Virus record (IMG/VR): IMGVR_UViG_3300028840_006907
Span: 96,001 to 160,000 of that record
Reading direction: 5' to 3' (one strand)
Length of the DNA stretch: 64,000 nt
Source: a virus
The notes under the pieces: generated by a model
Told to the model about the DNA's origin: nothing
Database searches by the model: none
Seen by the model: only the letters and a program-made list of their open reading frames with translations
Program-made: the position numbers and the translations under genes
Part shown: piece after piece, positions 2,426-53,189 of the stretch
How the letters are laid out: each line of letters starts with the position of its first letter
Position numbering within the stretch: the stretch's first letter is position 1

Positions 2426-2502
2426 TGGTACCCCAATCAGGACTCTAACCTGAAATCTTTGGCTCCGGAAACCAACGCTTTATACAATTAAGCTATTGGG
2501 GC
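2426..2502 (-). tRNA. tRNA-Arg (anticodon CCG)
   Basis: Hand fold: acceptor GCCCCAA/TTGGGGT, anticodon loop TTCCGGA, encoded CCA. Confidence 0.8.
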
Positions 2503-2511
2503 ATTATAAGA

Positions 2512-2586
2512 TGGCGGTGCGTAAGGGAATCGAACCCTTGCCAGGAGATCGACAGTCTCCGGTCCTAACCACTGAACGAACGCACC
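2512..2586 (-). tRNA. tRNA-Asp (anticodon GTC)
   Basis: Hand fold: acceptor GGTGCGT/ACGCACC, loop CTGTCGA, T-loop GGTTCGATTCC, CCA. Confidence 0.85.
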
Positions 2587-2783
2587 GTATTTTTATTAAT
2601 CAATTTTTTTATTTCCGATAAAAAGACCGCAGTCGCATTGCCGAGCCATTTTCGTTTTATTCTTTATTACAATGCCTATTGCTTTAATAGGCTTTTTACA
2701 AGTGTTGCAAATATTTTGCTGTGTCTTTTTGTCATGCTGTTTCACTGCTGTTTTAGCCATTACTTGTACTCCTTAAATGTTAT

Positions 2784-2856
2784 GGCAGGGACGGTCAGAT
2801 TCGAACTGACATCGCCGGTTTTGGAGACCGGGTGCTTGACCGTTAGCGACGCCCCT
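2784..2856 (-). tRNA. tRNA-Trp (anticodon CCA)
   Basis: Hand fold: anticodon stem CCGGT/ACCGG, loop CTCCAAA, T-loop GTTCGAATC. Confidence 0.8.
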
Positions 2857-3062
2857 GTATTGACAAATTTTTCATGATTTGAACCATTCACTACAACCTT
2901 CGGCTAGTTCTAATAAATGAACACAAGGTTTTGTTTCTTTTGCCAGAACACAGCCACACACTGTACAAATTACCACAGCAGGTTTCAAATCATGTTTCTC
3001 AATTTCAGCGAATGCTTTCACTATATCATTCACTATATCATTCATTTTTTCTCCGAATTATC

Positions 3063-3135
3063 TGGGCGCAGACGGACTTGAACCGCCCACGAATGGCTTA
3101 TGAGACCACTACTCTACCGACTGAGTTATACGCCC
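3063..3135 (-). tRNA. tRNA-Met/Ile2 (anticodon CAT)
   Basis: Hand fold: acceptor GGGCGTA/TGCGCCC, loop CTCATAA, no encoded CCA. Confidence 0.8.
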
Positions 3136-3144
3136 TTGACTTAT

Positions 3145-3221
3145 GGCACACCCGGCACGATTTGAACGTGCGACTTCTTCGTTCGTGGCGAAGATCTCTA
3201 TCCGGACTGAGTTACGGGTGC
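3145..3221 (-). tRNA. tRNA-Arg (anticodon ACG)
   Basis: Hand fold: anticodon stem CTTCG/CGAAG, loop CCACGAA, T-arm GCACGTTCAAATCGTGC, CCA. Confidence 0.8.
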
Positions 3222-3227
3222 GTATTT

Positions 3228-3728
3228 TTATAAAAAAGTTTTATACGTTTTTTTATTAATGATATATGATAATGTTGATTTTGCTGATTTATATTCCTTT
3301 GCTAATTTATTTAAACTTTCTCCATTTTTATTTCTGTTAATTATAGATTCTATCTCTTTTTTTGTGAATTTTCTTAATTTATACGCAGCTTTAACTGCTT
3401 GCTCTTTTCTTTCTTTTTCAGGTATATCAAATGAATTCTCTGATCTTGTACCAATTGATATATTAGAATCATTGAAATTTAATCTATTTCTATCTAAGTG
3501 TCTAGTCTCAATCCCTTCTTCAAAAACTTTATCCCCAAATAAAAAGTATGCTTTTAATTTATGTACTTTTAAATTTTTAATCTTTTTGTTTACATAGATA
3601 TTTATGGTAGGGTAACCTTTTGAATAATGGAATCTTAAAGGTTTTCCCATTGGCCCAATAACTTCATTTTTATCATTAAAATGATATCCTTTTTTTACAG
3701 CTATTTTTAAGACATCATTATTTTTCAT
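3228..3728 (-). CDS. HNH homing endonuclease
   Basis: 166 aa; HNH_3-like motif HLDRNRLNFNDSN; abuts tRNA cluster. Confidence 0.7.
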   Translation of the reverse strand: MKNNDVLKIAVKKGYHFNDKNEVIGPMGKPLRFHYSKGYPTINIYVNKKIKNLKVHKLKAYFLFGDKVFEEGIETRHLDRNRLNFNDSNISIGTRSENSFDIPEKERKEQAVKAAYKLRKFTKKEIESIINRNKNGESLNKLAKEYKSAKSTLSYIINKKTYKTFL

Positions 3729-3748
3729 ATATTAATTTTTCTTTCTAA

Positions 3749-3821
3749 TAGGGGTACGGGGAGTCGAACCCCGGTCGTGGGAGAGAAAATCCCATATCCT
3801 AAGCCATTAGAAGATACCCCC
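3749..3821 (-). tRNA. tRNA-Glu (anticodon TTC)
   Basis: Hand fold: acceptor GGGGGTA/TACCCCT, anticodon stem TGGGA/TCCCA, loop TTTTCTC, T-arm CGGGGTTCGACTCCCCG; D-arm atypical. Confidence 0.65.
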
Positions 3822-3865
3822 ATAAAATAAAAAAGCTCCTGTCTGGTTCTCACCCGACAGGAGCT
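3822..3865 (-). terminator. rho-independent terminator (minus strand)
   Basis: 10-bp stem AGCTCCTGTC/GACAGGAGCT followed on minus strand by TTTTTTATTTT. Confidence 0.6.
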
Positions 3866-4023
3866 TGTATTTGCTTTATTGTTAGACAATATTATACCCT
3901 ATCAGGTGATATGTACCTCCCGATCTCGTTCGCGCCATTCTATAGCGATTGATATAATATTGTTTGTTGTTTTCATAATAATTTAAATATACCCCAAAAG
4001 GAAAGATATGTCAACTTTAAATT

Positions 4024-4653
4024 TTATTTTTTCTTGAGTCGCTTATGAAAAGTATAAGCTTGAGCTGTTTGAAGTAAAAGAGTTAACCAGTTTTCTTCAA
4101 ATTCTGTTATTAGATAAGGGAATTTTTTGACATCTTTATCTAATTTTGCCCACTTCCAATTAATTGGATCATCGTTACTACTAACCCATATATCTCCATT
4201 GTGCTGATTAATATAAGCTACCCAAAGTTCATTTCTTTCATTAGTATAAGAGTGAAAACAGAATCCTGTTATAAACGGCCCATCGGGAAGTTTGAATGGA
4301 TCTTGGTATTCTTCGAAAAATTGTTTTGATGTTTTTAATCCTGTTTTAATACATCCTGGAATAATTATTTTTTCTATGACATTTTTTTCTGACATTTCTT
4401 CGTTCAATTTTAAAGTAAATTTTGTACTACCTGAGTGCCTTTTCTTCATTTCTTCTTCTGATAATTGTTTAACAATACCGTAATCTTTAAAAGAGGATAG
4501 GTTGAAGGAAGCCCCAATATTCTTTTTACTTTTATTATTAAAAGTAGCTTTTTTTGTCAATCCAGTAATATCTGATATTACATACCCTATGTAAGTTAAA
4601 TTTTCTTTACGCCTAATTTCTAAACCATTTTCTAATAGCTGTGTGTCTTTCAA
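4024..4653 (-). CDS. hypothetical protein
   Basis: 209 aa ORF followed by terminator. Confidence 0.5.
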   Translation of the reverse strand: MKDTQLLENGLEIRRKENLTYIGYVISDITGLTKKATFNNKSKKNIGASFNLSSFKDYGIVKQLSEEEMKKRHSGSTKFTLKLNEEMSEKNVIEKIIIPGCIKTGLKTSKQFFEEYQDPFKLPDGPFITGFCFHSYTNERNELWVAYINQHNGDIWVSSNDDPINWKWAKLDKDVKKFPYLITEFEENWLTLLLQTAQAYTFHKRLKKK

Positions 4654-5193
4654 AACATCTCCTTTGATTTATTATATGGATTTAAGATTTCTATATAATT
4701 AGAAATATATGAAAAATATAAGGAAAAATCAAGAAAAATTTAAGATATCGTGAAAAAGTCGTGAGAACTATTTAAGTATAAAAATCGGAAGTACATAGAT
4801 AGGGATGAATTATATTATTAATCGACACTTTTTTAAAATGATGAAGCCCTTTTGAGGGTAGTCGCACGGGATATCTGTGATTATGAAAATTATCATAGGT
4901 ATCCCATTTTATTGTATTATATGTAGCTGATTATCTATTTCCCAATTATCCTCATCTTTAATAATATCTTCTGGCCATCTGGCTGCAGGAGAAAATTCAT
5001 TATTTTGCCAAATTATAAATTTTTTCATAGCTTCTGATTTGTCTTTTGCTAATACAAGATATTGGTGGCATCCACATCCTTCAGCAAGGAATGTATAATA
5101 GTTCACTTAAAAGAGCCTTTTTAATATGTAGGAATTTAAATTGGAGGATCCGCATTATGACGCAGATCCTCCAACAATGAAAGGAACTTAATA

Positions 5194-7852: not shown

Positions 7853-8726
7853 CTATACTTTGTTCCGCTATATTTAACAAATATTTTCCGTAATTATTCT
7901 TTTCCATTGGTAGAGCTAGGTTCATTAATTGCCCCTCATTTATATAACCATTTCGGTATGCTATCTCTTCAGGAGAAGAAATGATCAGTCCTTGTCTGGT
8001 TTGTATAGCTTCTACAAACTGGGAAGCTTGCATCATGGATTCATGTGTACCCGTATCAAGCCATGCTACTCCTCGGCCAAGAAGTTCTACTTTCAATAAT
8101 TCTTTTTCAAGATAAATCTGGTTAAGGCTAGTTATTTCAAGTTCTCCTCTGGGGGAGGGTTTTACCTGATGAGCGTATTCCACAACATTTTCATCATAGC
8201 AATATAAACCGGTAACAGCATAGTTTGATTTTGGATATTTGGGTTTCTCTTCAATACTAATGGCTCTTCCGTGTCCATTAAATTCTACAACTCCATATCT
8301 TTGGGGATCTGTGACTTGGTAACCGAAAACAGTAGCACCATGATTAAGTGTTACTGATTTTCGGAGTTTATCAATGAATTTATGACCCCAGAATATATTG
8401 TCTCCTAAAATGAGTGTCGTAGGTGAATCCATGGCAAAATCAGCCCCGACAAGAAAGGCTTGAGCCAGCCCTTCAGGTTTAGGTTGTATTACATAAGAGA
8501 AGGACAGCCCCAATTTATGGCCATCTCCGAGTAATCGTTTATACGACTCTATATCCTGGGGTGTTGATATTATGAGAATTTCTCTAATTCCTGCAAGCAT
8601 TAGTATTGATAGAGGATAATATATCATCGGCTTATCGTATATAGGAATTAACTGTTTGCTTATTCCTATAGTAGCTGGATAGAGCCTAGTCCCTGATCCT
8701 CCGGCAAGGATAATACCTTTTACCAT
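7833..8726 (-). CDS. rmlA: glucose-1-phosphate thymidylyltransferase
   Basis: 297 aa; [16 protein letters not shown], full-length RmlA-like. Confidence 0.9.
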
Positions 8727-15797: not shown

Positions 15798-15872
15798 AAG
15801 TGGTATACACAACTTAAAGAGCGGTCCTTCATGTTAACGTAGGTAATTTTCTCTGTAAGTTGTTGATTTATA

Positions 15873-16282
15873 TGGAGGTGAGGAGAGTTGAACTCCTGTC
15901 CGCGAAGGTATCTTGAGTAAACCTCTACATGTTTAGTCTATGGTTTAAATCTTATTCATAATCACGTTCACAGACAAACTTAATTAAGAACCAGTCTCTA
16001 GTCTCATTCATTGGTCAAGACTCCTCAATGAACCAGAACCCGTTTGGCTATCCGGAATTAACAGGGTTCAGTTAAAACCGGATTTGTCGTTTTTTGTTTA
16101 AACGACGGCTTCTTCTGCTTGATGAATAGCAGCAAGGTTAAGTGCTGAAAACATCGCACAGAAGTTAACTGTATTAGTTTTTTCAGTTATTATTGAAATC
16201 GGCTTTTTTACGAGGCCAACCGATTAACCTCGACATGCAGTTTACATTTCAACTCATCACGTCGAAAACCAAGTACACCCCC
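15873..16282 (-). ncRNA. ssrA: tmRNA (transfer-messenger RNA, ssrA-like)
   Basis: Minus strand 5' GGGGGTGTACTTGGTTTTCGACG..., internal GGTTGGCCTCGTAAAAAAGCCG matching conserved tmRNA pseudoknot/resume region, 3' tRNA-like GGAGTTCAACTCTCCTCACCTCCA. Confidence 0.8.
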
Positions 16283-16382
16283 AGAATTATCAAAGAACTA
16301 TTAATAGTATAAACTATTTCAATGAAAATATCAAATGTTTTTATCTTTATAAGGCTGTTTTTTAATTAGACTAAATACTAAT

Positions 16383-21794: not shown

Positions 21795-21868
21795 GCCGGA
21801 ATAGCTCAGTTGGCCAGAGCGGTTGATTTGTAATCAATTCGTCGGGGGTTCGAATCCCTCTTTCGGCT
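21795..21868 (+). tRNA. tRNA-Thr (anticodon TGT)
   Basis: Hand fold: acceptor GCCGGAA/TTTCGGC, loop TTTGTAA, T-loop GGTTCGAATCC. Confidence 0.8.
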
Positions 21869-21934: not shown

Positions 21935-22234
21935 ATGTCTCATCCGAAAAACAAAAGAGAACGTTTTCTTATTGGGAAACGTAAAGGGGAAAAACGTTCT
22001 TATTTGTATTGGAGTGGTTATTCCAATTGGTTTGACCTTCCAGATTATTTCTATAAGAAAAGCCCTCGTAATAAGGGTGTTGAGTATGAGGAGAAAAAGA
22101 GATTACTCGAAAAGAGTAAAGCAATAAGAAGGGATACAACAAAGTTATGCTCTTGTCCTCAGTGTGGAAATCCGCGCAGACATTTTAAAGAGCGTACTTT
22201 ACAAGAAAAAAGATATTTTACTGCGGGGGGCTAG
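21935..22234 (+). CDS. hypothetical basic protein with C-terminal CxxC
   Basis: 99 aa; CSCPQCGNPRRH. Confidence 0.45.
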   Translation: MSHPKNKRERFLIGKRKGEKRSYLYWSGYSNWFDLPDYFYKKSPRNKGVEYEEKKRLLEKSKAIRRDTTKLCSCPQCGNPRRHFKERTLQEKRYFTAGG

Positions 22235-22294
22235 GCCTGGTGGTCTGGCAGGTCTCATAAGCCTGCAACTCAAGTTCAATTCTTGGCCCCGCAA
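22222..22294 (+). tRNA. tRNA-Met-like (anticodon CAT), atypical D-arm
   Basis: Hand fold: acceptor TGCGGGG/CCCCGCA, anticodon stem CAGGT/GCCTG, loop CTCATAA, T-loop TTCAATT. Confidence 0.5.
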
Positions 22295-22689: not shown

Positions 22690-22765
22690 GGGCCGGAATG
22701 TTCCAAGGGGGCGAGAATGCCTTGCAAGCAATCTGCGGTGAGTTCGATTCTCACTCGGTCCACCA
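22690..22765 (+). tRNA. tRNA-Ala-like (anticodon TGC), degenerate D-arm
   Basis: G3:U70 acceptor pair, loop CTTGCAA, 3' half close to canonical tRNA-Ala (GTTCGATTC...TCCACCA); D-arm and one anticodon-stem pair irregular. Confidence 0.45.
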
Positions 22766-22919: not shown

Positions 22920-22994
22920 GCGAGTGTAGTTCAATGGCAGAACCCCACCCTTCCAAGGTGGTTGTTGTGAGTTCAAATCTCATCACTCGCTCCA
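22920..22994 (+). tRNA. tRNA-Gly (anticodon TCC)
   Basis: Hand fold: acceptor GCGAGTG/CACTCGC, loop CTTCCAA, CCA. Confidence 0.85.
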
Positions 22995-23001: not shown

Positions 23002-23076
23002 GCGGTAGTAGCTCAATGGTGGAGTTCCTCTTTGCCAAGGAGGAGGTTATCGGTTCAAGCCCGATCTACCGCTCCA
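23002..23076 (+). tRNA. tRNA-Gly (anticodon GCC)
   Basis: Hand fold: acceptor GCGGTAG/CTACCGC, loop TTGCCAA, CCA. Confidence 0.85.
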
Positions 23077-23166: not shown

Positions 23167-23245
23167 GGGCGCGTAGCCTAGCTGGTTAGGGCACCTGTTT
23201 TACACGCAGGAGATTTCGTAGGTTCAAGTCCTACCGCGCCTACCA
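23167..23245 (+). tRNA. tRNA-Val (anticodon TAC)
   Basis: Hand fold: acceptor GGGCGCG/CGCGCCT, loop TTTACAC, T-arm GTAGGTTCAAGTCCTAC, CCA. Confidence 0.8.
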
Positions 23246-23253: not shown

Positions 23254-23328
23254 GCCGGAGTAGCTCAGAGGCAGAGCAACGCTCTCGTAAAGCGTAGGTC
23301 AAGGGTTCAAGTCCCTTTTCCGGCTCCA
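23254..23328 (+). tRNA. tRNA-Thr (anticodon CGT)
   Basis: Hand fold: acceptor GCCGGAG/TTCCGGC, loop CTCGTAA, CCA. Confidence 0.85.
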
Positions 23329-28767: not shown

Positions 28768-28843
28768 GGCTGTCTGACCGATGTGGTAAAGGTGCTGGAC
28801 TGAAAATCCAGAAATTCCGGTTCAATTCCGGAGGCAGCCACCA
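28768..28843 (+). tRNA. tRNA-Phe (anticodon GAA)
   Basis: Hand fold: acceptor GGCTGTC/GGCAGCC, loop CTGAAAA, CCA. Confidence 0.85.
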
Positions 28844-28870: not shown

Positions 28871-28946
28871 GGGCGTATCGGCAAGCGGTTAAGCCACTAC
28901 TCTGATAAGGTAGCATGCGAAAGTTCAAATCTTTCTACGCCCACCA
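28871..28946 (+). tRNA. tRNA-Ile (anticodon GAT)
   Basis: Hand fold: acceptor GGGCGTA/TACGCCC, loop CTGATAA, CCA. Confidence 0.85.
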
Positions 28947-29733: not shown

Positions 29734-29819
29734 GCAGACGTGCTGGAATGGTAGACAGGCTTGGCTAAGGACCAAGTGTTCGTATGGGCGTGAGAGTTCG
29801 AGTCTCTCCGTCTGCACCA
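29734..29819 (+). tRNA. tRNA-Leu (anticodon read as AAG), type II
   Basis: Hand fold: acceptor GCAGACG/CGTCTGC, loop CTAAGGA, long variable arm, CCA. Confidence 0.75.
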
Positions 29820-30077: not shown

Positions 30078-30150
30078 GGGCTTGTGGCCAAGTTGGTAAG
30101 GCTCTTGACTTTTAATCAAGAAATCGTCAGTTCGATCCTGACCAGGCCCA
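30078..30150 (+). tRNA. tRNA-Lys (anticodon TTT)
   Basis: Hand fold: acceptor GGGCTTG/CAGGCCC, loop CTTTTAA. Confidence 0.85.
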
Positions 30151-30159: not shown

Positions 30160-30236
30160 GCTCCCGTAACTCAGTTGGTCAGAGTAGCTGATTCTTAATC
30201 AGCGAGTCGAGTGTTCAAATCACTCCGGGAGTACCA
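30160..30236 (+). tRNA. tRNA-Lys (anticodon CTT)
   Basis: Hand fold: acceptor GCTCCCG/CGGGAGT, loop TTCTTAA, CCA. Confidence 0.8.
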
Positions 30237-30255: not shown

Positions 30256-30344
30256 GGAAGGGAGCCAGATATTGGTTAGCTGGGGCTGTCTGCTAAACAG
30301 TTGTTCTATAAGGACTTAGGGTTCAATTCCCTATCCTTCCGCCA
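30256..30344 (+). tRNA. tRNA-Ser (anticodon GCT), type II
   Basis: Hand fold: acceptor GGAAGGG/TCCTTCC, loop CTGCTAA, long variable arm, CCA. Confidence 0.8.
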
Positions 30345-30767: not shown

Positions 30768-30845
30768 GGCCGAGTGGTGAAGTTGTTTTAACACGGTAGT
30801 CTGCAAAACTATTATGCGTCGGTTAGAATCCGACCTCGGCCTCCA
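30768..30845 (+). tRNA. tRNA-Cys (anticodon GCA)
   Basis: Hand fold: acceptor GGCCGAG/CTCGGCC, loop CTGCAAA, CCA. Confidence 0.75.
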
Positions 30846-31068
30846 GTTCTTTGAAATAAATAAGTATATCGAGTCCACGCGCAGATGTTAAGTCTGTGAG
30901 GAAGCTCAGGACATCACCGCTGACGGAAGGAGACGTAAGTCGTAGGTACTTCCTAGGATGCAACACAAACAGACCTATGCCGGTGAGCGGGGCTATGATG
31001 GTCGGGTTAGTGGCAAAGATAAATGTGGACATAAAACAGAATCCTGGCTACGGATATACTTATTATAC

Positions 31069-31175
31069 GGAGAGGTAGGTTTAATTGGTAAAATCAGTGC
31101 TTTGCACAGCACCTAAGCTAGCAAGGTGCCATTCCAGGGATGGATTTCGGGGTTCAAGTCCCCGTCTCTCTGCCA
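31069..31175 (+). other. atypical 107-nt tRNA-like element (canonical acceptor, D-arm and T-arm; aberrant anticodon region)
   Basis: GGAGAGG/TCTCTCT acceptor pairing, D-arm GGTTTAATTGGTAAAATC, T-arm CGGGGTTCAAGTCCCCG, CCA; middle holds GTGCTTTGCAC hairpin and GCTAGC palindrome. Confidence 0.35.
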
Positions 31176-31186: not shown

Positions 31187-31275
31187 GGAGGTAGACCGGC
31201 TGGACGAGGAGCCTGTCTTGAAAACAGGTAGGGCTGTAAAAGGTCTTCGGGGTTCAAGTCCTCGTGCCTCCGCCA
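31187..31275 (+). tRNA. tRNA-Ser (anticodon TGA), type II
   Basis: Hand fold: acceptor GGAGGTA/TGCCTCC, loop CTTGAAA, CCA. Confidence 0.8.
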
Positions 31276-31351: not shown

Positions 31352-31430
31352 TGGTGAGCGTAGCTTAACTTGGTTAGAGCACTGGATTGTGGTTCCAGGA
31401 GTTGGGGATTCGAGTTCCCTCGCTCACCCC
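31352..31430 (+). tRNA. tRNA-His (anticodon GTG)
   Basis: Extra 5' G(-1) opposite C73, loop TTGTGGT, CCA. Confidence 0.85.
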
Positions 31431-31459
31431 ATAAATTTTCATTTTATATAGAATGAAAC

Positions 31460-31549
31460 GAGTAGGAGGTCAGATAGTGGTTGGCTGCACCGGACTGTAA
31501 ATCCGGATCTCGTAAAGGGACGCTGGGGGTTCGACGCCCTCCCTACTCA
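31460..31549 (+). tRNA. tRNA-Tyr (anticodon GTA), type II
   Basis: Hand fold: acceptor GAGTAGG/CCTACTC, loop CTGTAAA, long variable arm. Confidence 0.8.
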
Positions 31550-31563: not shown

Positions 31564-31649
31564 GGAGAGCAACCGAATGGTTAGGAGGCGGTTTCGAAAA
31601 CCGTTAAGGCTGAAAGGCTAACTAAGTTCGATTCTTAGGCTCTCCGCCA
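31564..31649 (+). tRNA. tRNA-Ser (anticodon CGA), type II
   Basis: Hand fold: acceptor GGAGAGC/GCTCTCC, loop TTCGAAA, CCA. Confidence 0.8.
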
Positions 31650-32116: not shown

Positions 32117-32202
32117 GGAGGATATCCGAATTGGTTTAGGGGCTCGGTTGGAAACCGAGTGGGCTCAATGCCTTGCAGGTTCGATCCCTGTGTCCTCCGC
32201 CA
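32117..32202 (+). tRNA. tRNA-Ser (anticodon GGA), type II
   Basis: Hand fold: acceptor GGAGGAT/GTCCTCC, loop TTGGAAA, CCA. Confidence 0.8.
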
Positions 32203-34320: not shown

Positions 34321-34397
34321 GGCAGTGTAGCATAGTAGATTAATGCATTCGGCTCATATCCGGGAGATCGGAGGTTTAATTCCTCTCACTGCCACCA
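34321..34397 (+). tRNA. tRNA-Met/Ile2 (anticodon CAT)
   Basis: Hand fold: acceptor GGCAGTG/CACTGCC, loop CTCATAT, CCA. Confidence 0.75.
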
Positions 34398-35557: not shown

Positions 35558-36142
35558 ATGATGAGTGAAGCTCGTAAAAGTTATGCTAAACGTTCATTTA
35601 TTATAGGTAAATTTAAATATATCTTTAAAATATATGTTACTGAAGAACTAATATTTTCATCAGAGGATCTATTCCCTTTAAGGGATAAGACTATGATAAC
35701 ATTTTTTAGAACGAATTCTTATATTGAAACAGCAAAACAAATGAATATCTCAATTCCTGAATTAAAGAAAAAGATCTTAAATACTATAGAATTACTTGGA
35801 GAAGTTAGATCATTCTATTTAACGAAAAAACTTGTTAGGCATAATAAAAAAAGTAAAGATTGTAATTTAGGAACTTATAGAACAAAAAGAATAAGAGTAA
35901 GTGAATATAAAAAACCATTAGTTGAAGAATTCAGATGTAATATTAAGAGGTATCAAAATATAATGGGTAAATTTTTGAGCCCTTTAAAAAAGGATGTTAT
36001 GGAATTAATATTGAAAAACGGCTCTTATTTAAAAACAGCTAAAAGATTGAATATAACACCCAAAAAAGTCAGAAATGAGCTTGTGGGAATAGTTAAATTA
36101 CTTAAAAAGGTGAAAAAGACTGATTGGATTATTCCATCATAG
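35558..36142 (+). CDS. DNA-binding protein with two HTH repeats (sigma-70 region-4-like)
   Basis: 194 aa; repeated YIETAKQMNIS / YLKTAKRLNIT helix-turn-helix-like segments. Confidence 0.5.
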   Translation: MMSEARKSYAKRSFIIGKFKYIFKIYVTEELIFSSEDLFPLRDKTMITFFRTNSYIETAKQMNISIPELKKKILNTIELLGEVRSFYLTKKLVRHNKKSKDCNLGTYRTKRIRVSEYKKPLVEEFRCNIKRYQNIMGKFLSPLKKDVMELILKNGSYLKTAKRLNITPKKVRNELVGIVKLLKKVKKTDWIIPS

Positions 36143-36328
36143 AAAAGAGATATTATGACCATATGTCCTTATTGTAATGAACAAAGAAGTTTAGAGCATG
36201 ATAATTCATGTGTTCTCTGGAAACGAAGAATATACATAGGTTTTACGAATGCCCTGATGTGCCTTTTCGGGATACTTTTAATATTTGGTCTAATGTTTCT
36301 TGTAATAAAGTATGGTTGAAAGATTTAT

Positions 36329-36410
36329 GGCCGAGTGGCAGAATTGGCAGACGCGCTAGATTTAGGATCTAGTTTCGAAAGAATTGGAGGTTCGATCCCT
36401 CTCTCGGCTA
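36329..36410 (+). tRNA. tRNA-Leu (anticodon TAG), type II
   Basis: Hand fold: acceptor GGCCGAG/CTCGGCT, loop TTTAGGA, long variable arm. Confidence 0.8.
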
Positions 36411-36438
36411 TTTAAAGAATTCTTTAAAGGTAAATAAG

Positions 36439-36741: not shown

Positions 36742-36749
36742 ATAAAAAT

Positions 36750-36833
36750 GATCGGGTGGAGGAATTGGGATACTCAGCAAATTTAAGCTTTGCTGTCCTT
36801 TGTGACATGCGGGTTCGATTCCCGCCCCGATTA
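36750..36833 (+). tRNA. tRNA-Leu (anticodon TAA), type II
   Basis: Hand fold: acceptor GATCGGG/CCCGATT, loop TTTAAGC, long variable arm. Confidence 0.8.
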
Positions 36834-36846
36834 TTATATAATAATT

Positions 36847-37644: not shown

Positions 37645-37727
37645 GGCCGGATGTTGGAATTGGTATACAAGGACGGCTCAAACCCGTTCGCCTTTACGGT
37701 ATGGGAGTTCGATTCTCCCTCCGGCTA
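37645..37727 (+). tRNA. tRNA-Leu (anticodon CAA), type II
   Basis: Hand fold: acceptor GGCCGGA/TCCGGCT, loop CTCAAAC, long variable arm. Confidence 0.8.
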
Positions 37728-38563: not shown

Positions 38564-38642
38564 GCCCTGTTAGCTCAGTTGGATCTAGAGCAAGGCCCTT
38601 CTAAGGCTTAGGTCGGGGGTTCGAGTCCCTCACAGGGTGCCA
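38564..38642 (+). tRNA. tRNA-Arg (anticodon TCT)
   Basis: Hand fold: acceptor GCCCTGT/ACAGGGT, loop CTTCTAA, CCA. Confidence 0.85.
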
Positions 38643-38867: not shown

Positions 38868-39443
38868 ATGATGGGGATAAGGATTGATATTGAACATGTC
38901 CGGAAGATCCAGGAAGAACGGAAAAGAATTAATTCTATACCATTAGAACAAATTGAATGGTACGAAGATGGGATAAAATTGGAAATTCATCCCGATTTAA
39001 TAAGAGAATTTTTATTTACAGGATTAGATAATACTGACTTCATAATAAGTGAAATGTACAAAGATAAAGGTCCTTACAGAGTTTTTAAAGATTCTGAATG
39101 TGGTAGATTATTTGATGAGAAGCAAATTGTCGGGCAGAAAATGTGCTATTTAGGTGATGTTGGTTGTGGCTCAACCGGTATAGGACCTAGACCTATATTT
39201 GTTGATGCTGAAGAGTTTGTGAAAAGAGTAAGTACTTTACGATCAGAAGGTATGACAAAAGAACAGTGTAAAGAGTTTGTCTTTAAGAAACTGGAAAAGA
39301 AAGGGTGTGGTTATAATTTTAGTGGATCCTGGATTGAATGGGATAGTCTTATAGAAGCAGTTTTCGGTAATTTAGAAACTGATAACACGAATCCAGTTGT
39401 CCGGAACGTAATTGAAATAATGAAACGTGATAAGTCCCTGTAG
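38868..39443 (+). CDS. hypothetical protein
   Basis: 191 aa ORF; stop overlaps start of tRNA-Arg. Confidence 0.5.
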   Translation: MMGIRIDIEHVRKIQEERKRINSIPLEQIEWYEDGIKLEIHPDLIREFLFTGLDNTDFIISEMYKDKGPYRVFKDSECGRLFDEKQIVGQKMCYLGDVGCGSTGIGPRPIFVDAEEFVKRVSTLRSEGMTKEQCKEFVFKKLEKKGCGYNFSGSWIEWDSLIEAVFGNLETDNTNPVVRNVIEIMKRDKSL

Positions 39444-39509
39444 TTCAACAGGATAGAACATAGGTTTCCTAAACCTAGTATTGGGGTTCGAGTCCCTACA
39501 GGGATACCA
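39434..39509 (+). tRNA. tRNA-Arg (anticodon CCT)
   Basis: Hand fold: acceptor GTCCCTG/CAGGGAT, loop TTCCTAA, CCA. Confidence 0.8.
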
Positions 39510-39640: not shown

Positions 39641-40192
39641 ATGAACAACTATAAGACATTAGTATTAGCAGGTGGAGTACCTATTGACGTGGAAAGCTGG
39701 CAAAAATCATTAACAAAATGTATATCGGGAAAGGCCATAGCAATCAAGAATAGGAAAGAAATTGCCTTTGAGACTAATGGAGTAGTTACATACATACCTT
39801 CGATCATTGTAATCTTAAATACCTATTTTATGGGTAGATTAAGGTTTGTAAATACGGTTCCTCTTAATAGGCGTAATTTGTGGCTTAGGGATAAAGGTCA
39901 TTGTATGTATTGTAATAGTAAAATAACGACAGAAGAAGTGACTTTTGATCATGTCATTCCTCAAAGTAAAGGCGGTAAAACAACTTGGACGAACGTTGTC
40001 TGCTCGTGTTCTATTTGTAATAATAAAAAAGACAATAGAACTCCAAAACAGGCTAGGATGACTTTGGTAAAAGCACCAACGGTTCCTAAACTTAGTAAAA
40101 AGGTTGTCCAAAGAATGATAAAAAAGTTGGGAACTATTTCTATTAATGAGGATTCTTGGAAAGGTTATTGGGACGTGACTTTATTGTCGTAA
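39641..40192 (+). CDS. HNH endonuclease
   Basis: 183 aa; CMYCNSKIT...FDHVIPQSKGG...CSCSICNNKK. Confidence 0.7.
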   Translation: MNNYKTLVLAGGVPIDVESWQKSLTKCISGKAIAIKNRKEIAFETNGVVTYIPSIIVILNTYFMGRLRFVNTVPLNRRNLWLRDKGHCMYCNSKITTEEVTFDHVIPQSKGGKTTWTNVVCSCSICNNKKDNRTPKQARMTLVKAPTVPKLSKKVVQRMIKKLGTISINEDSWKGYWDVTLLS

Positions 40193-42915: not shown

Positions 42916-43277
42916 TTTTTACTGTAACCTTTTTTACGTTTATATTCTACTCTTGTTAACCATCCACTAAAAGAAATTAATGCTCTTCTTTTTAATCTGG
43001 GCTTTGAATAAAAGCGTGATTTATAGTGCTTCCTTTGAAATGATAACTTTCTTCTGAGTTTGATTAATTCAGGATCAATCGGTTTTAAATGATACTCTTC
43101 TTGTTTTTCAGGTTCAGGCTCTCCCGTAAAAGTACCCATGGCAACTGGAGTCCTACCTACAAAAACAATAGTACAAGTCCATGTGCAATTAGCACAACAA
43201 GTAGAAGTTAATCCCCATCCTTGAGGGCATTGATTATAATAAGTTCCTCCAGTGCCTGTGCAAGAGATATCTATCAT
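42912..43277 (-). CDS. Cys-rich hypothetical protein
   Basis: 121 aa; CPQGWGLTSTCCANCTWTC. Confidence 0.4.
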   Translation of the reverse strand: MIDISCTGTGGTYYNQCPQGWGLTSTCCANCTWTCTIVFVGRTPVAMGTFTGEPEPEKQEEYHLKPIDPELIKLRRKLSFQRKHYKSRFYSKPRLKRRALISFSGWLTRVEYKRKKGYSKK

Positions 43278-44089
43278 TTGTCAGGTATCTCCTGGAATTT
43301 GTTACTGTATTTCCATTTAAATCCACCACCTGTTCTATTTGTAAAAAATTTTTTTCCAGACGGATCATTTCTATTCCTATCTTTTCGGTTCCTGGCTACT
43401 GCTGTTATTTTAGACTTATCTACACCTGTTACAAAAGAAGCTTCTTTAATACTGCTGTATGTGCATATTAAGTTTACTCCCTTTTTATCCCATTGTTCTA
43501 CAGGTCTTTCAAATTTTTTGCACCATTGTTCTTTGGTTATTATTTCAAGGTTGTCTAATGCATATGGTTTATTTGTATCAATTCGGGTTATATATGGTGT
43601 TAAACCTTTATTTTGTTTATCTTGTACCCATATCCGAAACATTTTGAAAAATTTATATTGATCGGAGATCCATCCTAAAAACTCATCGAATGAATAAGAA
43701 AGATCTTCTCCTTTTTTTCTTGAAAGTGCCTTATGACGATTGTAAACTTTATTTAGAAAATCATTAACATAATTGAGCCTTTTTTTCTTCCAAATTTTAT
43801 GACAGTCTTTGCATATGTTGAAATTTTTACGAGCTTTATTTTTATCAGTTAATTCAACTCTACATTTACAACATACTTTTTGGTTATCATGTTCATAATT
43901 TTCTGCATATTTCCAGATGTAACCTCCACAACTTTTAGATTTACCAACAACACAATTATTTATAGTTTGTCGATGTAATTTATTCTTTCTTGCAGCCATG
44001 GATATTGAAGGGTAAGTCTTTATGGCTCTACCGGTTTCCATTGAATATTTTGTAACTGCTCTCCATCGAGTCTTTGGTATATTAATCAT
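43274..44089 (-). CDS. homing-endonuclease-like DNA-binding protein (NUMOD/HTH-like modules)
   Basis: 271 aa; repeated SI..AAR.. and YSSIKEASFVTGV segments like homing-endonuclease DNA-binding modules; no clear catalytic motif seen. Confidence 0.4.
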   Translation of the reverse strand: MINIPKTRWRAVTKYSMETGRAIKTYPSISMAARKNKLHRQTINNCVVGKSKSCGGYIWKYAENYEHDNQKVCCKCRVELTDKNKARKNFNICKDCHKIWKKKRLNYVNDFLNKVYNRHKALSRKKGEDLSYSFDEFLGWISDQYKFFKMFRIWVQDKQNKGLTPYITRIDTNKPYALDNLEIITKEQWCKKFERPVEQWDKKGVNLICTYSSIKEASFVTGVDKSKITAVARNRKDRNRNDPSGKKFFTNRTGGGFKWKYSNKFQEIPDK

Positions 44090-50178: not shown

Positions 50179-50179
50179 T

Positions 50180-50255
50180 TGGGATGTCGCCTAACGGTAT
50201 GGCACCTGACTCTGGCTCAGGAATAATCAGGGTTCAAGTCCTTGCATCCCAGCCA
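50180..50255 (+). tRNA. tRNA-Gln (anticodon CTG)
   Basis: U1:A72 acceptor TGGGATG/CATCCCA, loop CTCTGGC, CCA. Confidence 0.8.
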
Positions 50256-50279: not shown

Positions 50280-50353
50280 CGGGGTGTGGCCTAGTCTGGT
50301 AAGGCGTCTGCTTCGGGAGTAGAAAATCGGAGGTTCAAATCCTCTCATCCCGA
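50280..50353 (+). tRNA. tRNA-Pro (anticodon CGG)
   Basis: C1:G72 acceptor CGGGGTG/CATCCCG, loop TTCGGGA. Confidence 0.8.
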
Positions 50354-50371
50354 TTAATAAAGGTAAAAATT

Positions 50372-50926
50372 ATGAGACCCATGATATATCCTAAAAAGAA
50401 TAGGAAAATAAAAAGACCACGAAGATCGAGACCATTAAAAAGATGTGTTCATATTGATGGAAAAGAATGGAGGTGGGAAACAACAGGTCACTGGGATAGT
50501 GATGCAGGTAGTTATGGTTGTTTAACTGATCAGAGCGTTAAAATACTTTCTCCTGATAATAAATTTTTTTCTATACGTGCTCATGAAGTAATGAAATGTG
50601 AACCGATAAGATGGGAATGTTGTGTTGGTGAAAAATTAATAACAGTTTTACCGGGGAAAGTAAAACAGTATATAATAGATAATTTAATTGATCATGATAT
50701 TTCAAGATCGTTAAGGAGACGCATTCATATAGATGGTAGAGAATGGGGTTGGCAGTTTAGTAAAGGAAATCCTGCATATCAGCTCTGTGGAGTATCTGTC
50801 CGTTCTCCTGATAATCGGTATTTATGGATTTATGCAAAAGAGTTAGGATACGAGATTAAACCATCAGTAATTAAAAAGTATATAATTGATAATTTATTAT
50901 ATCGGGGTATAGCGCAGCCTGGTTAG
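50372..50926 (+). CDS. hypothetical protein with internal duplicated ~75-aa module
   Basis: 184 aa; repeats HIDG(K/R)EW(R/G)W...SPDN(K/R)...YIIDNL; 3' end overlaps tRNA-Pro. Confidence 0.45.
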   Translation: MRPMIYPKKNRKIKRPRRSRPLKRCVHIDGKEWRWETTGHWDSDAGSYGCLTDQSVKILSPDNKFFSIRAHEVMKCEPIRWECCVGEKLITVLPGKVKQYIIDNLIDHDISRSLRRRIHIDGREWGWQFSKGNPAYQLCGVSVRSPDNRYLWIYAKELGYEIKPSVIKKYIIDNLLYRGIAQPG

Positions 50927-50979
50927 CGCGTCTGAATGGGGTTCAGAAGGTCGCCAGTTCAACTCTGGCTACCCCGACC
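50902..50979 (+). tRNA. tRNA-Pro (anticodon GGG)
   Basis: C1:G72 acceptor CGGGGTA/TACCCCG, loop ATGGGGT, CCA. Confidence 0.8.
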
Positions 50980-50998
50980 AAAGTTCTTTGAAAATTAT

Positions 50999-51274
50999 GG
51001 GGGTGTGGCAGAAGGGATATGCAGTCCTCAAAAAGTAGACAGGTCTGGGTAAAACCGGGTCATTACAGGAAGTTTGTATTCGCTACTGAAACGAAACAAA
51101 GGGAAGGTAGTGTAACGCTTACGGACTGGTGCTTGCAAGGGTTTACGGAAGACACTGACACGTTGCCTGGGATCTGGAGACAGCCCAGGAGGGTTTGTAA
51201 ATAACGGCAGGAAGTCCTTTTTCCCAATAGTGAGCTTTGGATGACTTATGCCGGTTCGAATCCGGTCACCTCCA
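50999..51274 (+). other. tRNA-like ends (acceptor GGGGGTG/CACCTCC, T-arm GCCGGTTCGAATCCGGT) enclosing ~200-nt GC-rich insert; unresolved structured RNA or intron-containing tRNA
   Basis: Acceptor complementarity and canonical T-arm at 3' end; no normal anticodon arm found by hand; GC content far above surroundings. Confidence 0.4.
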
Positions 51275-51360
51275 TCAAAATAAATTAAATAGATAGATAG
51301 GCAAACTGGCAAGCCATTTGGTTGTAATAGAAAATGTGTAGCAAGATCATAAAGACATAC

Positions 51361-51632
51361 TGGAGTGTAGCTCAGTGGCAGAGCGGGTGGCTGTCTTGGT
51401 TGGCAGCTCTTATAGGAAACTGTAAGATGAAAACTCGGTGAATTCAGGGAAACCTAAGTCTTAAACAGATATGGCAATCCTGAGCGAAGCCTTGAGAAAG
51501 GAACGTGCAGAGACTTATAGCGCCGAGCACCTAAGGTGAAAACTATGGTGATGAGATAGTCCAGGCCCTTGGGAAATCAGGGGAATTACTGTAACCACTT
51601 GGTCGGGGGTTCAAATCCCTCCACTCCAGCCA
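51361..51632 (+). tRNA. tRNA-Asn (anticodon GTT) interrupted by a group I intron
   Basis: Exon 1 51361-51394 (TGGAGTG...GGTGG-CTGT), exon 2 51592-51632 (TAA-CCACT...CACTCCAGCCA); spliced loop CTGTTAA; U1:A72 as in bacterial tRNA-Asn. Confidence 0.7.
51395..51591 (+). ncRNA. group I intron (~197 nt) in tRNA-Asn anticodon loop
   Basis: 5' exon ends in U; IGS GGCAG pairs with exon CUGU; R-like GCAGAGACTTATAGCG and S-like GAGATAGTCC elements; terminal G before exon 2. Confidence 0.65.
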
Positions 51633-51683
51633 ATTTTAAAGGGTCCTAGAGGAATTTACTTTAAAGAAAAGGAGAAAAATTAA

Positions 51684-51884
51684 ATGAGTAAAGATGAGAA
51701 ACCTGATTATTCGAAAGATTTCGATACATGTCCTTGGTGTAATAAAATACCAAAAGTATCGAAACATTTCAGATATGATGAATGGCAACTGATCCATCGT
51801 TGTGATAAATTACTTACTGTAATTAGTATGGATTGGACTGAATTAGATAGTCTTAAAAATCGATGGAATCGACCTAAGAAATGA
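51684..51884 (+). CDS. hypothetical protein
   Basis: 66 aa ORF; CPWCNK. Confidence 0.4.
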   Translation: MSKDEKPDYSKDFDTCPWCNKIPKVSKHFRYDEWQLIHRCDKLLTVISMDWTELDSLKNRWNRPKK

Positions 51885-52156
51885 CAGAATGTACTATATG
51901 TGAAAGAGAAACTCCTGAGAAATATGTGGAGAAACATCACTTGACTCCTTGTAGCCGAGGAGGAAAGGATAAGGAGAAAACACTTACTTGTATTGATTGC
52001 GGAGATCAGGTACATCGATTATTTACGAATAAAGAATTGGAGAGAGACTATTATACACTCGAAAAATTATTAGCTCATCCTAAAATCCAGAAATGGAAGA
52101 AATGGGTTAAGAATAAGAGATTCGGGATATGTATGAAACGAAAAAAGAAGAGATAA
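51881..52156 (+). CDS. small HNH-type endonuclease-like protein
   Basis: 91 aa; CTICE...EKHHLTPCSRGG...CIDCGDQVH. Confidence 0.5.
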   Translation: MTECTICERETPEKYVEKHHLTPCSRGGKDKEKTLTCIDCGDQVHRLFTNKELERDYYTLEKLLAHPKIQKWKKWVKNKRFGICMKRKKKR

Positions 52157-52163
52157 TATATAA

Positions 52164-52239
52164 CGGGCGGTCGCCTAATCTGGTATGGCACCACATTTGG
52201 GATGTGGAATAACTGGAAGTTCAAATCTTCTCCGCCCGA
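52164..52239 (+). tRNA. tRNA-Pro (anticodon TGG)
   Basis: C1:G72 acceptor CGGGCGG/CCGCCCG, loop TTTGGGA. Confidence 0.8.
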
Positions 52240-52253
52240 TATATTTTTAAATC

Positions 52254-52329
52254 AATAAGTTACTGGGATGTAGTTCAGTTGAAAGAACACCGGAATTTGG
52301 ATCCGGGGGTCGCAGGTTTGAGCCCTGCC
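52254..52329 (+). tRNA. tRNA-Gln (anticodon TTG)
   Basis: U1:A72 acceptor TGGGATG/CATCCCA, loop ATTTGGA, CCA. Confidence 0.8.
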
Positions 52330-52537
52330 ATCCCAGCCATTTAATTTTTTTATCAATATATTTACCACAAAGACGTATATTATTTATACAACTTAAAAAT
52401 AGGAATAATATATGACATAGATAAAAATACCACCCTAGATCCTCAAAATATTCAAACCTCCTTAAAACACGGTTATTATACCAAATGGTGTTATACCAAA
52501 CAGTACAATATTCATTCATTTAAACAGGAGAATAACC

Positions 52538-52837
52538 GTGATCAAAAATAGAAAATTTTTAAAATTTGAATTAAAATTAGAAGCTCAAAAATTACGAAAA
52601 ATCAAGACTGATATTAAAACCAAGCAGAGAGCTGGCCAGTATGCCGGTCATGAACAGTCCGAATTATTGACTCTTAAATGGAATTACCGCCATCGATTTA
52701 TTGCTTATTGTATGATGCGGGGTAGAGAATATAAGCAAATCGAAAGAACATGTAGAGTTGAACCAAATCATGACTGGGTAAAGGAGATCATCAATGAATA
52801 CTCCCCGCAAAAAGAAACTATACGTGCTTCTGCGTAA
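52538..52837 (+). CDS. hypothetical protein
   Basis: 99 aa ORF. Confidence 0.4.
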   Translation: MIKNRKFLKFELKLEAQKLRKIKTDIKTKQRAGQYAGHEQSELLTLKWNYRHRFIAYCMMRGREYKQIERTCRVEPNHDWVKEIINEYSPQKETIRASA

Positions 52838-53108
52838 AGATTTGGATGAAACTTATCGATGTGTTCAAGGAGGCCATGCTATTGCTGAGTATTCTCTAAA
52901 GGATTACCAGTCATTTAAAGAATGGGCAAATGGAACTCTGATTTATCTTGGAGTACCTGATTTAAAAGCTTTGGAATTATGGTTGCTCAAATTGGAACGG
53001 AAAAATATTTTTCATATCAGGTTTCATGAACCCGATCTTGGGAATGAGTTAACATCGGTAGCTTGTATAAATACAGGGAAAATTTTTAAAAGTCTTCCTC
53101 TTGCTTAA
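52794..53108 (+). CDS. possible PTH2-like peptidyl-tRNA hydrolase
   Basis: 104 aa; KLYVLLRKDLDE...GGHAIAEY weakly resembles PTH2 family. Confidence 0.35.
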   Translation: MNTPRKKKLYVLLRKDLDETYRCVQGGHAIAEYSLKDYQSFKEWANGTLIYLGVPDLKALELWLLKLERKNIFHIRFHEPDLGNELTSVACINTGKIFKSLPLA

Positions 53109-53115
53109 AGTTACA

Positions 53116-53189
53116 GCGCCTGAGGCTCTGAGGTGAGCAACTTGGACTCTAAATCCAAGTTTTTCAGGGTTCGACTCCCTACAGGCGCA
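53116..53189 (+). tRNA. suppressor tRNA (anticodon CTA, reads UAG)
   Basis: Hand fold: acceptor GCGCCTG/CAGGCGC, anticodon stem TTGGA/TCCAA, loop CTCTAAA (U33, CUA, A37), T-loop TTCGACT. Confidence 0.65.

Follow-up and report, generated by a model that had tools for sequence, protein, structure and literature searches.

A near-complete tRNA set and a conserved, reduced RNase P-like RNA in a probable huge-phage genome

The DNA considered here is a 64,000-nucleotide stretch, called the window below, which covers positions 96,001 to 160,000 of the IMG/VR virus record IMGVR_UViG_3300028840_006907 and is part of the 388,651-bp metagenome contig Ga0180437_10000019 (JGI 3300017963), to which an identical NAPRTase gene assigns it; the contig is above the 200-kb size of huge phages. 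The window carries 38 tRNA genes in five clusters, all within positions 2426-53189 and interleaved with small open reading frames (ORFs) and HNH endonuclease genes. Among them lies a gene for a ~200-nt RNA resembling the RNA of RNase P (30862..31061, plus strand). The initial annotation of the window, made by hand folding, had proposed a near-complete set of about 38 clustered tRNA genes, and 38 are indeed found with ARAGORN and Rfam. Every anticodon that it listed was recovered, Leu(AAG) included, and automated folding did not reject most of the calls (34 are made by default ARAGORN, and 29 genes pass with the Rfam tRNA model RF00005). While its factual core stands, it contained neither the CTA anticodon nor the tmRNA, the intron of tRNA-Asn or the RNase P-like RNA.

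The tRNA set represents all 20 amino acids with 35 distinct sense anticodons plus CTA. Default ARAGORN reports 34 tRNAs and one tmRNA in the window, and relaxed or special searches add four further genes, Tyr(GTA), Ser(CGA), Ala(TGC) and Asn(GTT). An independent cloverleaf with a 7-nt anticodon loop is obtained for the 34 default genes, for Tyr and Ala with relaxed settings and for Asn in the ARAGORN intron mode. The RF00005 gathering score of 29 bits is reached by 29 of the ARAGORN tRNAs, which range from 38 to 69 bits. Six tRNAs with long variable arms (four for Ser, Leu(CAA) and Tyr) either fall below it or match the tRNA-Sec model only; type II tRNAs often score low on RF00005.

In the following account genes were called by ARAGORN and bit scores are those of RF00005, unless stated otherwise. 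The minus strand carries tRNA-Arg(CCG) at 2426..2502 (62.9 bits, CCA encoded), tRNA-Asp(GTC) at 2512..2586 (60.6 bits), tRNA-Trp(CCA) at 2783..2856 (48.5 bits), a tRNA(CAT) for either elongator Met or Ile2 (lysidine) at 3063..3135 (59.9 bits), tRNA-Arg(ACG) at 3144..3221 (45.4 bits) and tRNA-Glu(TTC) at 3748..3822 (48.7 bits). The other genes are on the plus strand, starting with tRNA-Thr(TGT) at 21795..21868 (66.5 bits). An atypical, initiator-like tRNA(CAT) with a C1xA72 mismatch follows at 22224..22294; it scores 22.7 bits (gathering 29), and its minimum-energy fold is a cloverleaf (z -2.7). An Ala-like tRNA(TGC) at 22690..22765, called by relaxed ARAGORN only, is of low confidence: it has the G3:U70 pair and a good T arm and CCA end, the D arm is weak, and in a local scan RF00005 gives no match, the best model being tRNA-Sec at 19.8 bits. 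Next come tRNA-Gly(TCC) at 22920..22994 (67.3 bits), tRNA-Gly(GCC) at 23002..23076 (62.5 bits), tRNA-Val(TAC) at 23167..23245 (62.3 bits), tRNA-Thr(CGT) at 23254..23328 (67.3 bits), tRNA-Phe(GAA) at 28768..28843 (60.2 bits), tRNA-Ile(GAT) at 28871..28946 (62.1 bits), tRNA-Leu(AAG), with A34, at 29734..29819 (53.3 bits), tRNA-Lys(TTT) at 30078..30150 (69 bits) and tRNA-Lys(CTT) at 30160..30236 (66.5 bits).

Several of the genes around the RNase P-like RNA have counterparts in the relative L130, a syntenic IMG/VR viral contig (IMGVR_UViG_3300031673_009100) with an overall identity of about 70-77%. They include tRNA-Ser(GCT), with a long variable arm, at 30256..30344, and tRNA-Tyr(GTA), also with a long variable arm, at 31463..31549, which was found by relaxed ARAGORN and Rfam. 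A third is tRNA-Ser(CGA) at 31564..31649, which scores 32.6 bits with the tRNA-Sec model, has a cloverleaf as its minimum-energy fold (z -2.6) and is syntenic with a Ser(CGA) called by default ARAGORN in L130. In the same region lie tRNA-Cys(GCA) at 30768..30845 (60.6 bits), tRNA-Ser(TGA) at 31187..31275 (ARAGORN and Rfam scan), tRNA-His(GTG) at 31354..31431 (58.1 bits) and tRNA-Ser(GGA) at 32117..32202 (ARAGORN and Rfam scan). Further downstream are a second tRNA(CAT) for elongator Met or Ile2 at 34321..34397 (61 bits), tRNA-Leu(TAG) at 36328..36411 (46.5 bits), tRNA-Leu(TAA) at 36749..36834 (Rfam, 46.8 bits), tRNA-Leu(CAA) at 37645..37727 (ARAGORN and Rfam scan), tRNA-Arg(TCT) at 38564..38642 (61 bits), tRNA-Arg(CCT) at 39434..39509 (61.6 bits), tRNA-Gln(CTG) at 50180..50255 (54.6 bits), tRNA-Pro(CGG) at 50280..50353 (62.7 bits), tRNA-Pro(GGG) at 50903..50980 (Rfam, 61.3 bits), a tRNA-Asn(GTT) split by a group I intron at 51361..51632 (ARAGORN intron mode; RF00028), tRNA-Pro(TGG) at 52164..52239 (54.2 bits), tRNA-Gln(TTG) at 52264..52339 (61.1 bits) and a tRNA(CTA) of amber-suppressor type at 53116..53189 (labelled 'Pyl' by ARAGORN; 38.1 bits).

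An aberrant tRNA-shaped gene at 31069..31175 (plus strand; 30.1 bits with RF00005), directly 3' of the RNase P-like RNA, is left out of the 38. In its fold the 7-bp acceptor stem, both the D and the T arm and the GCCA terminus are normal, but there are also a 12-bp extended 'anticodon' arm with a 6-nt loop and an extra arm, and an ARAGORN call requires an artificial 11-nt intron; it is not a normal decoder. It has no homologue in 130 fetched loci, and in L130 its position is held by an HNH-like ORF. Also rejected was an ARAGORN 'tRNA-Stop(tta)' at 35592-35687, which is 23% GC, has poor stems and lies inside an ORF. The intron mode of ARAGORN gives many chimeric false calls inside tRNA arrays.

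The RNase P-like gene begins 16 nt past tRNA-Cys and ends 7 nt before the tRNA-like gene at 31069. In a permissive Rfam scan it matches the archaeal RNase P model RF00373 over its full span (46.8 bits, E = 4.5e-10), positions 1-288 being accommodated in 200 nt with some 117 specificity-domain positions skipped. The helices P1, P2, P3, P4 (a pseudoknot with a bulged U), P5, P6 (also a pseudoknot) and a P15/16-17-like element can be recognised, as can the motifs GAGGAA, AGAUAAAUG, ACAGAA and GGU. In the P6 pseudoknot the partner strand comes from the P16/17-like hairpin loop. The specificity domain (S-domain; P7-P14, with CR-II and CR-III) is absent and a two-tier hairpin of ~40 nt stands in its place. 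P18 is absent from the window copy, and at its position, after the GGGU motif, L130 and the locus L132 have extra hairpins inserted (L130 7104-7400, L132 3984-4211), L130 also having an insertion after ACAGAA. Other members of the family match the bacterial class A model RF00010 over its full length at 49-64 bits. Rfam 15 contains no other family that fits the RNA, nor one of its own.

Conservation of the structure was assessed on an alignment of 37 distinct sequences made with MAFFT, blind to structure, onto which the structure of the type-A catalytic domain (C-domain) was then written. In this alignment 85.6% of cells are paired, as against 59.2% in shuffles (none of 500 reaching the observed value) and 29-43% in slid controls. 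Changes on both sides, that is compensatory changes, occur in 45 of the 51 pairs. Pairing is most consistent in P5 (100% of cells), P4 (96.9%, with five of its seven pairs covarying), the P15-like helix (94.6%) and P6 (86.5%); P1 and P3, where the alignment is poorer, have 64-68%. The P4 bulged U and the GAGGAAAGUC, ACAGAA and AGAUGAAUG regions are invariant in the 37 sequences. Listed by column, the invariant positions are GAGGAA, the bulged U, GCAA, an A in the J5/15-like strand, GGU, AGAU-AAUG and ACAGAA.

These features are shared with the bacterial type-A RNase P RNA (RF00010), which likewise has P1-P5, the P4 bulged U, the P6 pseudoknot, the GAGGAA(A)G-UC, AGAUGAAUG-like and ACAGAA regions and a GGU beside the P15/16 helix; the models align end to end. 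The phage-type RNA differs from it in being ~185-235 nt rather than ~350-400 nt long, in having the S-domain replaced by the ~40-nt hairpin, which carries its own conserved GGGAG...UCGUUUGUAC motif, and in being viral, encoded within tRNA arrays and below the Rfam gathering score. Naturally reduced RNase P RNAs include type T of Pyrobaculum and the small RNAs of Mollicutes or organelles. Judged by its sequence, the 200-nt RNA is one that keeps the whole catalytic core of a type-A RNase P RNA and a stub of the specificity domain.

The RNA is not peculiar to the window. A motif scan of IMG/VR followed by nhmmer yields homologues in at least 38 loci, and a profile built from the alignment finds it in at least 54 sources including the window: at least 43 of 119 viral loci from the motif scan, seven of eight matches from a genome scan, the syntenic relative L130, and the published huge phages LR756501 (735 kb) and LR745206 (635 kb). 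With blastn, LR756503 and the 642-kb LR756502 were also matched; all four GenBank records are unannotated. These huge phages were found only with a concatenated query of several family members, a blastn search of the GenBank phages with the single window element giving no match. The genome scan, made with a highly specific pattern for which ~0.3 chance hits are estimated, matched only eight places across 185,579 species genomes, and seven of these fall on contigs of metagenome-assembled genomes (MAGs), including a 425-kb contig binned as "Pacearchaeota". The sole isolate genome is that of Achromobacter anxifer LMG 26857 (L126, NZ_CAHLAR010000005.1), where 32 tRNA genes lie within 8 kb and the copy is divergent (nhmmer E 5e-4, family profile E 6e-19). 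This array is probably a prophage or a mobile tRNA array, and may offer a culturable system.

The association with tRNA genes is strong. Among the matches listed, tRNAs are found in 37 of 45 positive loci (480 tRNAs in all) and in 11 of 81 loci that match the pattern only, five of these 11 being positive with the profile. The element is co-oriented with the tRNAs in most loci and abuts them within a few to ~40 nt. The family that it represents is conserved and covarying, and is nearly confined to the tRNA arrays of viruses. A connection between the invariant GGU and encoded CCA ends was tested and dropped, CCA encoding being all-or-none per phage and showing no relation to the element (41% vs 44%). 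In type-A enzymes the GGU motif binds the substrate's 3' end.

This combination of structure and position suggests a function. The tRNA clusters would be transcribed as multi-tRNA precursors, the flanking tRNAs would punctuate the RNase P-like RNA out of the same transcript, and the RNA, probably with the host protein RnpA, would cut the 5' leaders of the phage pre-tRNAs. The host protein is named as the probable partner because no rnpA was found in the window, where a crude three-sequence profile run on the six-frame ORFs, a weak search, had a best E-value of 0.65 and Pfam scans of 30 ORFs gave none. We put at about one half the probability that huge phages possess a minimal RNase P ribozyme of their own, a type-A catalytic domain of ~200 nt bearing a novel small specificity hairpin, made within tRNA arrays, punctuated by tRNAs and maturing phage pre-tRNAs.

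Several observations count against such a function. Every Rfam score for RNase P is below gathering (46.8 against 84 for RF00373, and 49-64 against 100 for RF00010). The S-domain, which normally recognises the T and D loops of tRNA, is missing, and because of this the RNA could be inactive or a decoy. The copy in LR745206 (L131) has a degenerate core, with GAGAAA for GAGGAA and AGCAAAA where ACAGAA is expected, and may be decaying; this copy and that in L132 have no tRNA within 4 kb. Finally, scans for consensus signals in the window are not above shuffles (79 vs 73 sigma-70 promoters, 16 vs 10 intrinsic terminators), which leaves transcription in polycistronic form an assumption.

The missing domain, the sub-threshold scores and the mutated GAGGAA and ACAGAA motifs of L131 could be taken as signs that the RNA is a decoy or regulator, for example one that sequesters RnpA or competes with the host RNase P, or else a decaying fragment of a captured host rnpB. 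The precedent of camelpox virus favours this too: its RNase P-like RNA, the only earlier viral one found, is inactive in vitro (PMC3001073). Decay is nonetheless hard to reconcile with compensatory changes at so many pairs across 37 diverged sequences, and with invariant catalytic-core nucleotides that include the P4 bulged U and GGU. A decoy would need only a protein-binding surface, and so close a physical association with tRNA arrays is in keeping with a function in processing. Catalysis is known to persist in C-domains isolated from bacterial RNase P RNA. On this evidence a decoy, regulator or decaying fragment seems doubtful, and the invariance of the catalytic core and GGU would be better explained by catalysis.

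The camelpox virus RNA resembles that of the window in being virus-encoded and similar to RNase P RNA, but it comes from a eukaryotic virus and has no tRNA array, whereas the phage RNAs retain the catalytic core in full and are encoded amid the tRNAs presumed to be their substrates. Full-text literature searches, which left most subscription journals outside their range, surfaced the camelpox RNA and no description of the present one. Neither the paper describing huge phages (PMC7162821) nor a 2026 review of jumbo phages (PMC13282480) mentions RNase P. The mini RNase P RNA is thus apparently undescribed in the literature searched. If it is active, these phages take over the maturation of tRNAs besides their supply, and 5' processing would be a further function, beside the supply of tRNAs, the rescue of ribosomes and the self-splicing of the intron, that a phage can perform independently of its host. 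It would then rank as the first virus-encoded RNase P RNA that is functional, and as one of the smallest of bacterial type found in nature. As a natural minimal RNase P it would be useful for questions about the specificity domain and for compact tRNA-processing tools, and it would serve as an easy marker by which to annotate the tRNA arrays of viral metagenomes.

What purpose might so large a tRNA set serve? By standard wobble rules it covers essentially all sense codons, provided that one tRNA is tRNA-Ile2 and that U34 tRNAs read whole boxes. ATA makes up 38% of Ile codons and the set has no tRNA-Ile(UAU), and decoding rules make one of the two CAT tRNAs other than the initiator-like gene (3063-3135 or 34321-34397) the probable lysidine-containing tRNA-Ile2 for AUA; sequence similarity did not separate it from elongator Met. 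By the same rules the Ala, Val and Thr boxes would lean on single U34 tRNAs. There are tRNAs even for codons that are rare in the 13,193 codons of ORFs of at least 100 amino acids, such as CGG (49 occurrences), UCG (33) and CCG (51). Dedicated tRNAs also exist for rare ACG and, by way of C34, for CAG, AAG, AGG and UUG.

The initial annotation had singled out the A34 of tRNA-Leu(AAG) as unusual for bacteria-like systems. Unusual it is, but there are precedents, tRNALeu(AAG->IAG) having been documented in Lactobacillales and Streptococcus (PMC13249217, PMC11472039, PMC8266599). The gene is well formed, and CUU is the commonest of the CUN codons of the window. Since it is 93% identical in L130 while the neighbouring DNA is 67-77% identical, its A34 is under selection rather than an error.

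A phage tRNA pool would allow phage mRNAs to be translated despite codon mismatch, host shut-off or the cleavage or depletion of tRNAs. The classical explanation of phage tRNAs is compensation for codon usage, by which an AT-rich phage (~33% GC) boosts codons that are rare in its host. The base composition of the window (30-40% GC) suits it, as does the dominance of A/T-ending codons (AAA at 78%, GAT at 83% and TTA at 40% of Leu). From compensation alone, however, one would expect a biased subset, and the set found is complete down to the rarest codons. The tRNAs for G/C-ending codons that the phage itself seldom uses imply more than a top-up for an AT-rich codon bias, and the tmRNA and the tRNA-processing RNA alongside point to wholesale self-sufficiency. 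Pure compensation is accordingly an improbable explanation in our estimate, and a little more so than the next one considered; completeness argues against it, and is compatible alike with host shut-off, a broad host range and roles against nucleases.

The latter possibility is that phage tRNAs form a replacement pool which makes good, or out-competes, host tRNAs that anticodon nucleases cut or abortive infection depletes. Were any host tRNA liable to attack, a complete set would be required, reviews connect the tRNAs and RNA ligases of jumbo phages with the reversal of tRNA cleavage (PMC13282480), and genes of counter-defence type, such as those for NAD+ salvage (NAPRTase, NAD synthase, NMNAT-like), are close by. 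Yet no RNA ligase or polynucleotide kinase (PNK) was seen in the window, and we regard an anti-defence pool as a tentative and rather unlikely account of the set. The two purposes offered by the initial annotation, independence from the host tRNA pool and defence against anticodon nucleases or tRNA depletion, both remain plausible, the first being one that a complete set would fit.

The tRNA-Asn gene is the sole isoacceptor otherwise absent from the set, and it is interrupted. RF00028 matches positions 51385-51583 at 92.8 bits, well over the gathering score of 50. Exon 1 (51361..51394, plus strand) ends in ...GGUGG-CUGU, its final U being wobble-paired in P1 (GCUGU/C with GGCAGC), as read from the ARAGORN call and this U(-1):G pair. 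The intron ends in ...ACUG, and exon 2 (51592..51632), read from the sequence, begins UAA-CCACU and ends in GCCA. Given the P1 U:G pair and the terminal G, the intron can be assigned to 51395-51591, a length of 197 nt, between anticodon positions 35 and 36. Ligation would produce the anticodon loop CUGUUAA and hence tRNA-Asn(GUU), with U1-A72 and discriminator G73. ARAGORN miscalls the gene as tRNA-Thr(UGU) with an intron at 33/34. The intron contains no ORF. A crude similarity comparison of the spliced tRNA body with the tRNAs of other loci was uninformative.

Very similar introns have been described in 2025-26 in Patescibacteria, where tRNA-Asn introns at 35/36 self-splice in vitro and the same Thr(UGU) 33/34 miscall is documented; outside that group the site is rare, in a survey covering cellular genomes only (PMC13011429). 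The window intron shares with those tRNA-Asn/Asp introns (PMC13011429; 'Asn.4Ug', Williams 2020, bioRxiv 10.1101/2020.01.27.920355) the same tRNA, the 35/36 insertion, U(-1), the terminal G, a length of ~200 nt, the lack of a homing endonuclease ORF and the ARAGORN miscall, and differs from them in lying in a phage-type genome. On the sequence features listed, the 35/36 tRNA-Asn class would thereby extend to phages, a new host context. The tRNA would mature by self-splicing, which would be needed for it to function. Such a split gene means that standard annotation both undercounts and mislabels phage tRNAs, here taking Asn for Thr. A tRNA-Leu(TAA) in another viral contig (L115, 12452-12758, minus strand) has a 232-nt intron that resembles this one (nhmmer E 5.7e-5). 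Group I introns may be recurrent in phage tRNA genes.

The tRNA(CTA) at 53116-53189 folds into a clean cloverleaf (z -3.7). It would serve read-through or recoding of TAG in genes outside the window, and late genes elsewhere in the genome may be recoded. Within the window, coding density under code 11 is 79%, and TAG terminates eight of the 62 ORFs of at least 100 amino acids, one of them a GDP-mannose dehydratase whose Pfam match spans the entire model. The 10-kb flank contains long code-11 genes too. A search for recoding of TAG or TGA found no convincing bridged genes, the few TAG-bridged ORF pairs having the look of separate genes with normal spacers. Phages with recoded stop codons and suppressor tRNAs, with TAG read as Gln (code 15), are summarised in the theta-ribozyme paper (PMC10879173). 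The present genome is like them in encoding a tRNA with anticodon CUA and unlike them in that the window uses TAG as a terminator and has no in-frame TAG in any convincing gene. The tRNA therefore marks a genome worth checking for stage-specific TAG recoding. In L130 a 95-99-nt tRNA(TCA), absent from the window, lies at 8313-8407 between tRNA-Tyr and tRNA-Ser(CGA). It scores 64.3 bits with the tRNA-Sec model (gathering 47), as would be fitting for a phage-borne tRNA of Sec type or one reading opal codons.

A canonical tmRNA is encoded at 15870..16282 on the minus strand (RF00023, 159.9 bits against a gathering score of 47; also called by ARAGORN) and would rescue stalled ribosomes. Its tRNA-Ala-like domain includes G3:U70, its 5' end is GGGGGUG and its 3' end CACCUCCA. 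The predicted tag, EKTNTVNFCAMFSALNLAAIHQAEEAVV before the stop, has 28 residues and ends in ...EEAVV; ARAGORN reports 'Tag not identified'. The degradation tags of tmRNAs typically end in ...ALAA.

A second, degenerate tmRNA-like gene may be present at 50999..51277 (plus strand, 279 nt), which matches RF00023 weakly over the full model (11.2 bits). It has the same acceptor stem as the tmRNA (GGGGGUG/CACCUCC-A, with G3:U70) and a T arm, GGUUCGAAUCC, and between its two halves lie ~207 nt of unrelated sequence. Its fold is no better than shuffles (z -0.68), and it has no homologue in the 130 fetched loci. In intron mode ARAGORN calls a 'tRNA-Gln' at 50998-51276, an artefact of that mode that was not counted among the tRNA genes. 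Upstream of three 5' ends, at a distance of 6-7 nt, occurs a motif GTTCTTTGA(A/T): those of the RNase P-like RNA (30846-30855, plus), the tm-like element (50983-50992, plus) and the tmRNA (16289-16298, minus), and a similar TTCT(T/G)T is seen at the same distance in members of the RNase P-like family that have no preceding tRNA (L045, L018/L086, L057). The 10-mer is not enriched in the window overall, with 16 matches where 11 are expected. It may be a dedicated promoter or processing signal.

The gene content and the relatives of the contig strongly suggest that it is a phage. Phage-like genes in and beside the window include a member of phrog_3980 (E 6.9e-81), a sigma-factor-like protein, HNH endonucleases, an amidase, an R2K ATP-grasp protein and a Nudix hydrolase. 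A megablast search of GenBank phages with 12 kb of the window gave no match. We consider it likely that this is a huge-phage-type genome of ~389 kb with a self-contained set of translation RNAs (tRNAs, tmRNA, intron and RNase P-like RNA). Four findings sit less easily with that description. Neither the window nor the 10-kb flank yielded a gene for capsid, terminase or portal; a 29-mer of the window has no exact match in the copy of IMG/VR that was searched; in the window TAG serves as an ordinary stop, so that the suppressor tRNA has no demonstrated target there; and, besides the long-arm genes, two atypical tRNA genes, the initiator-like CAT and the Ala-like one, fall below RF00005 gathering.

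The lack of a virion gene in the window might also be taken to mean that the contig is cellular, from a reduced symbiont, a bacterium of the candidate phyla radiation (CPR) or a megaplasmid, and that the tRNAs are a housekeeping set. A tmRNA and an RNase P RNA alongside a complete set of tRNAs do form a cell-like combination, and the 35/36 intron class of tRNA-Asn is otherwise enriched in Patescibacteria. Cells, however, have a full-length RNase P RNA, and in the 74 kb of window and flank no ribosomal, replication-core or metabolic housekeeping genes were seen; there are instead HNH endonucleases, PHROG families, an amidase, a sigma factor and mostly ORFs of no known function. The closest relative is viral, as are at least 43 of the contigs that carry the mini RNase P RNA, with three curated huge phages among the family. 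The matches in the genome scan are on MAG contigs in all cases except Achromobacter anxifer, with its divergent copy. A cellular origin is therefore very improbable.

As a huge phage the genome has close parallels. Those described by Al-Shayeb et al. (2020, Nature; PMC7162821) have up to 67 tRNAs per genome, tmRNAs and SmpB, and their tRNAs are distinct from those of the host. Like them, the present genome exceeds 200 kb and has dozens of tRNAs and a tmRNA, and three of the largest of their genomes carry the same RNase P-like RNA. Unlike the present account, PMC7162821 and PMC13282480 mention neither tRNA introns nor this RNA. That huge phages can have large tRNA sets and tmRNAs has been published, and the tRNA set of the window is expected; what appears to be new, in the literature searched, is a conserved, virus-borne RNA of RNase P type among the tRNAs.

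Among the remaining genes, HNH or homing-endonuclease-like ORFs lie among the tRNA clusters at 3228-3728 (minus), 39641-40192 (plus) and 43274-44089 (minus). A block at 56022-63624 on the minus strand holds the NAD+ salvage genes, namely NAPRTase (62452-63624), NAD synthase (57096-57887) and an NMNAT-like CTP_transf protein (56022-56897), and beside them, on the same strand, are a Ser/Thr kinase (57900-59624) and a PP2C phosphatase (59624-60487). The flank beyond the window (L133) encodes flotillin, PspA, YqiJ and a K+-channel-like gene. The NAD+ salvage and membrane-stress modules look like those typical of jumbo phages. Finally, 58-60 nt at 54185-54244 match the mir-5583 model on both strands at 35-38 bits, below gathering. 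This is a strong palindromic hairpin just downstream of the ORF at 53288-54022, and probably a bidirectional terminator or other inverted repeat.

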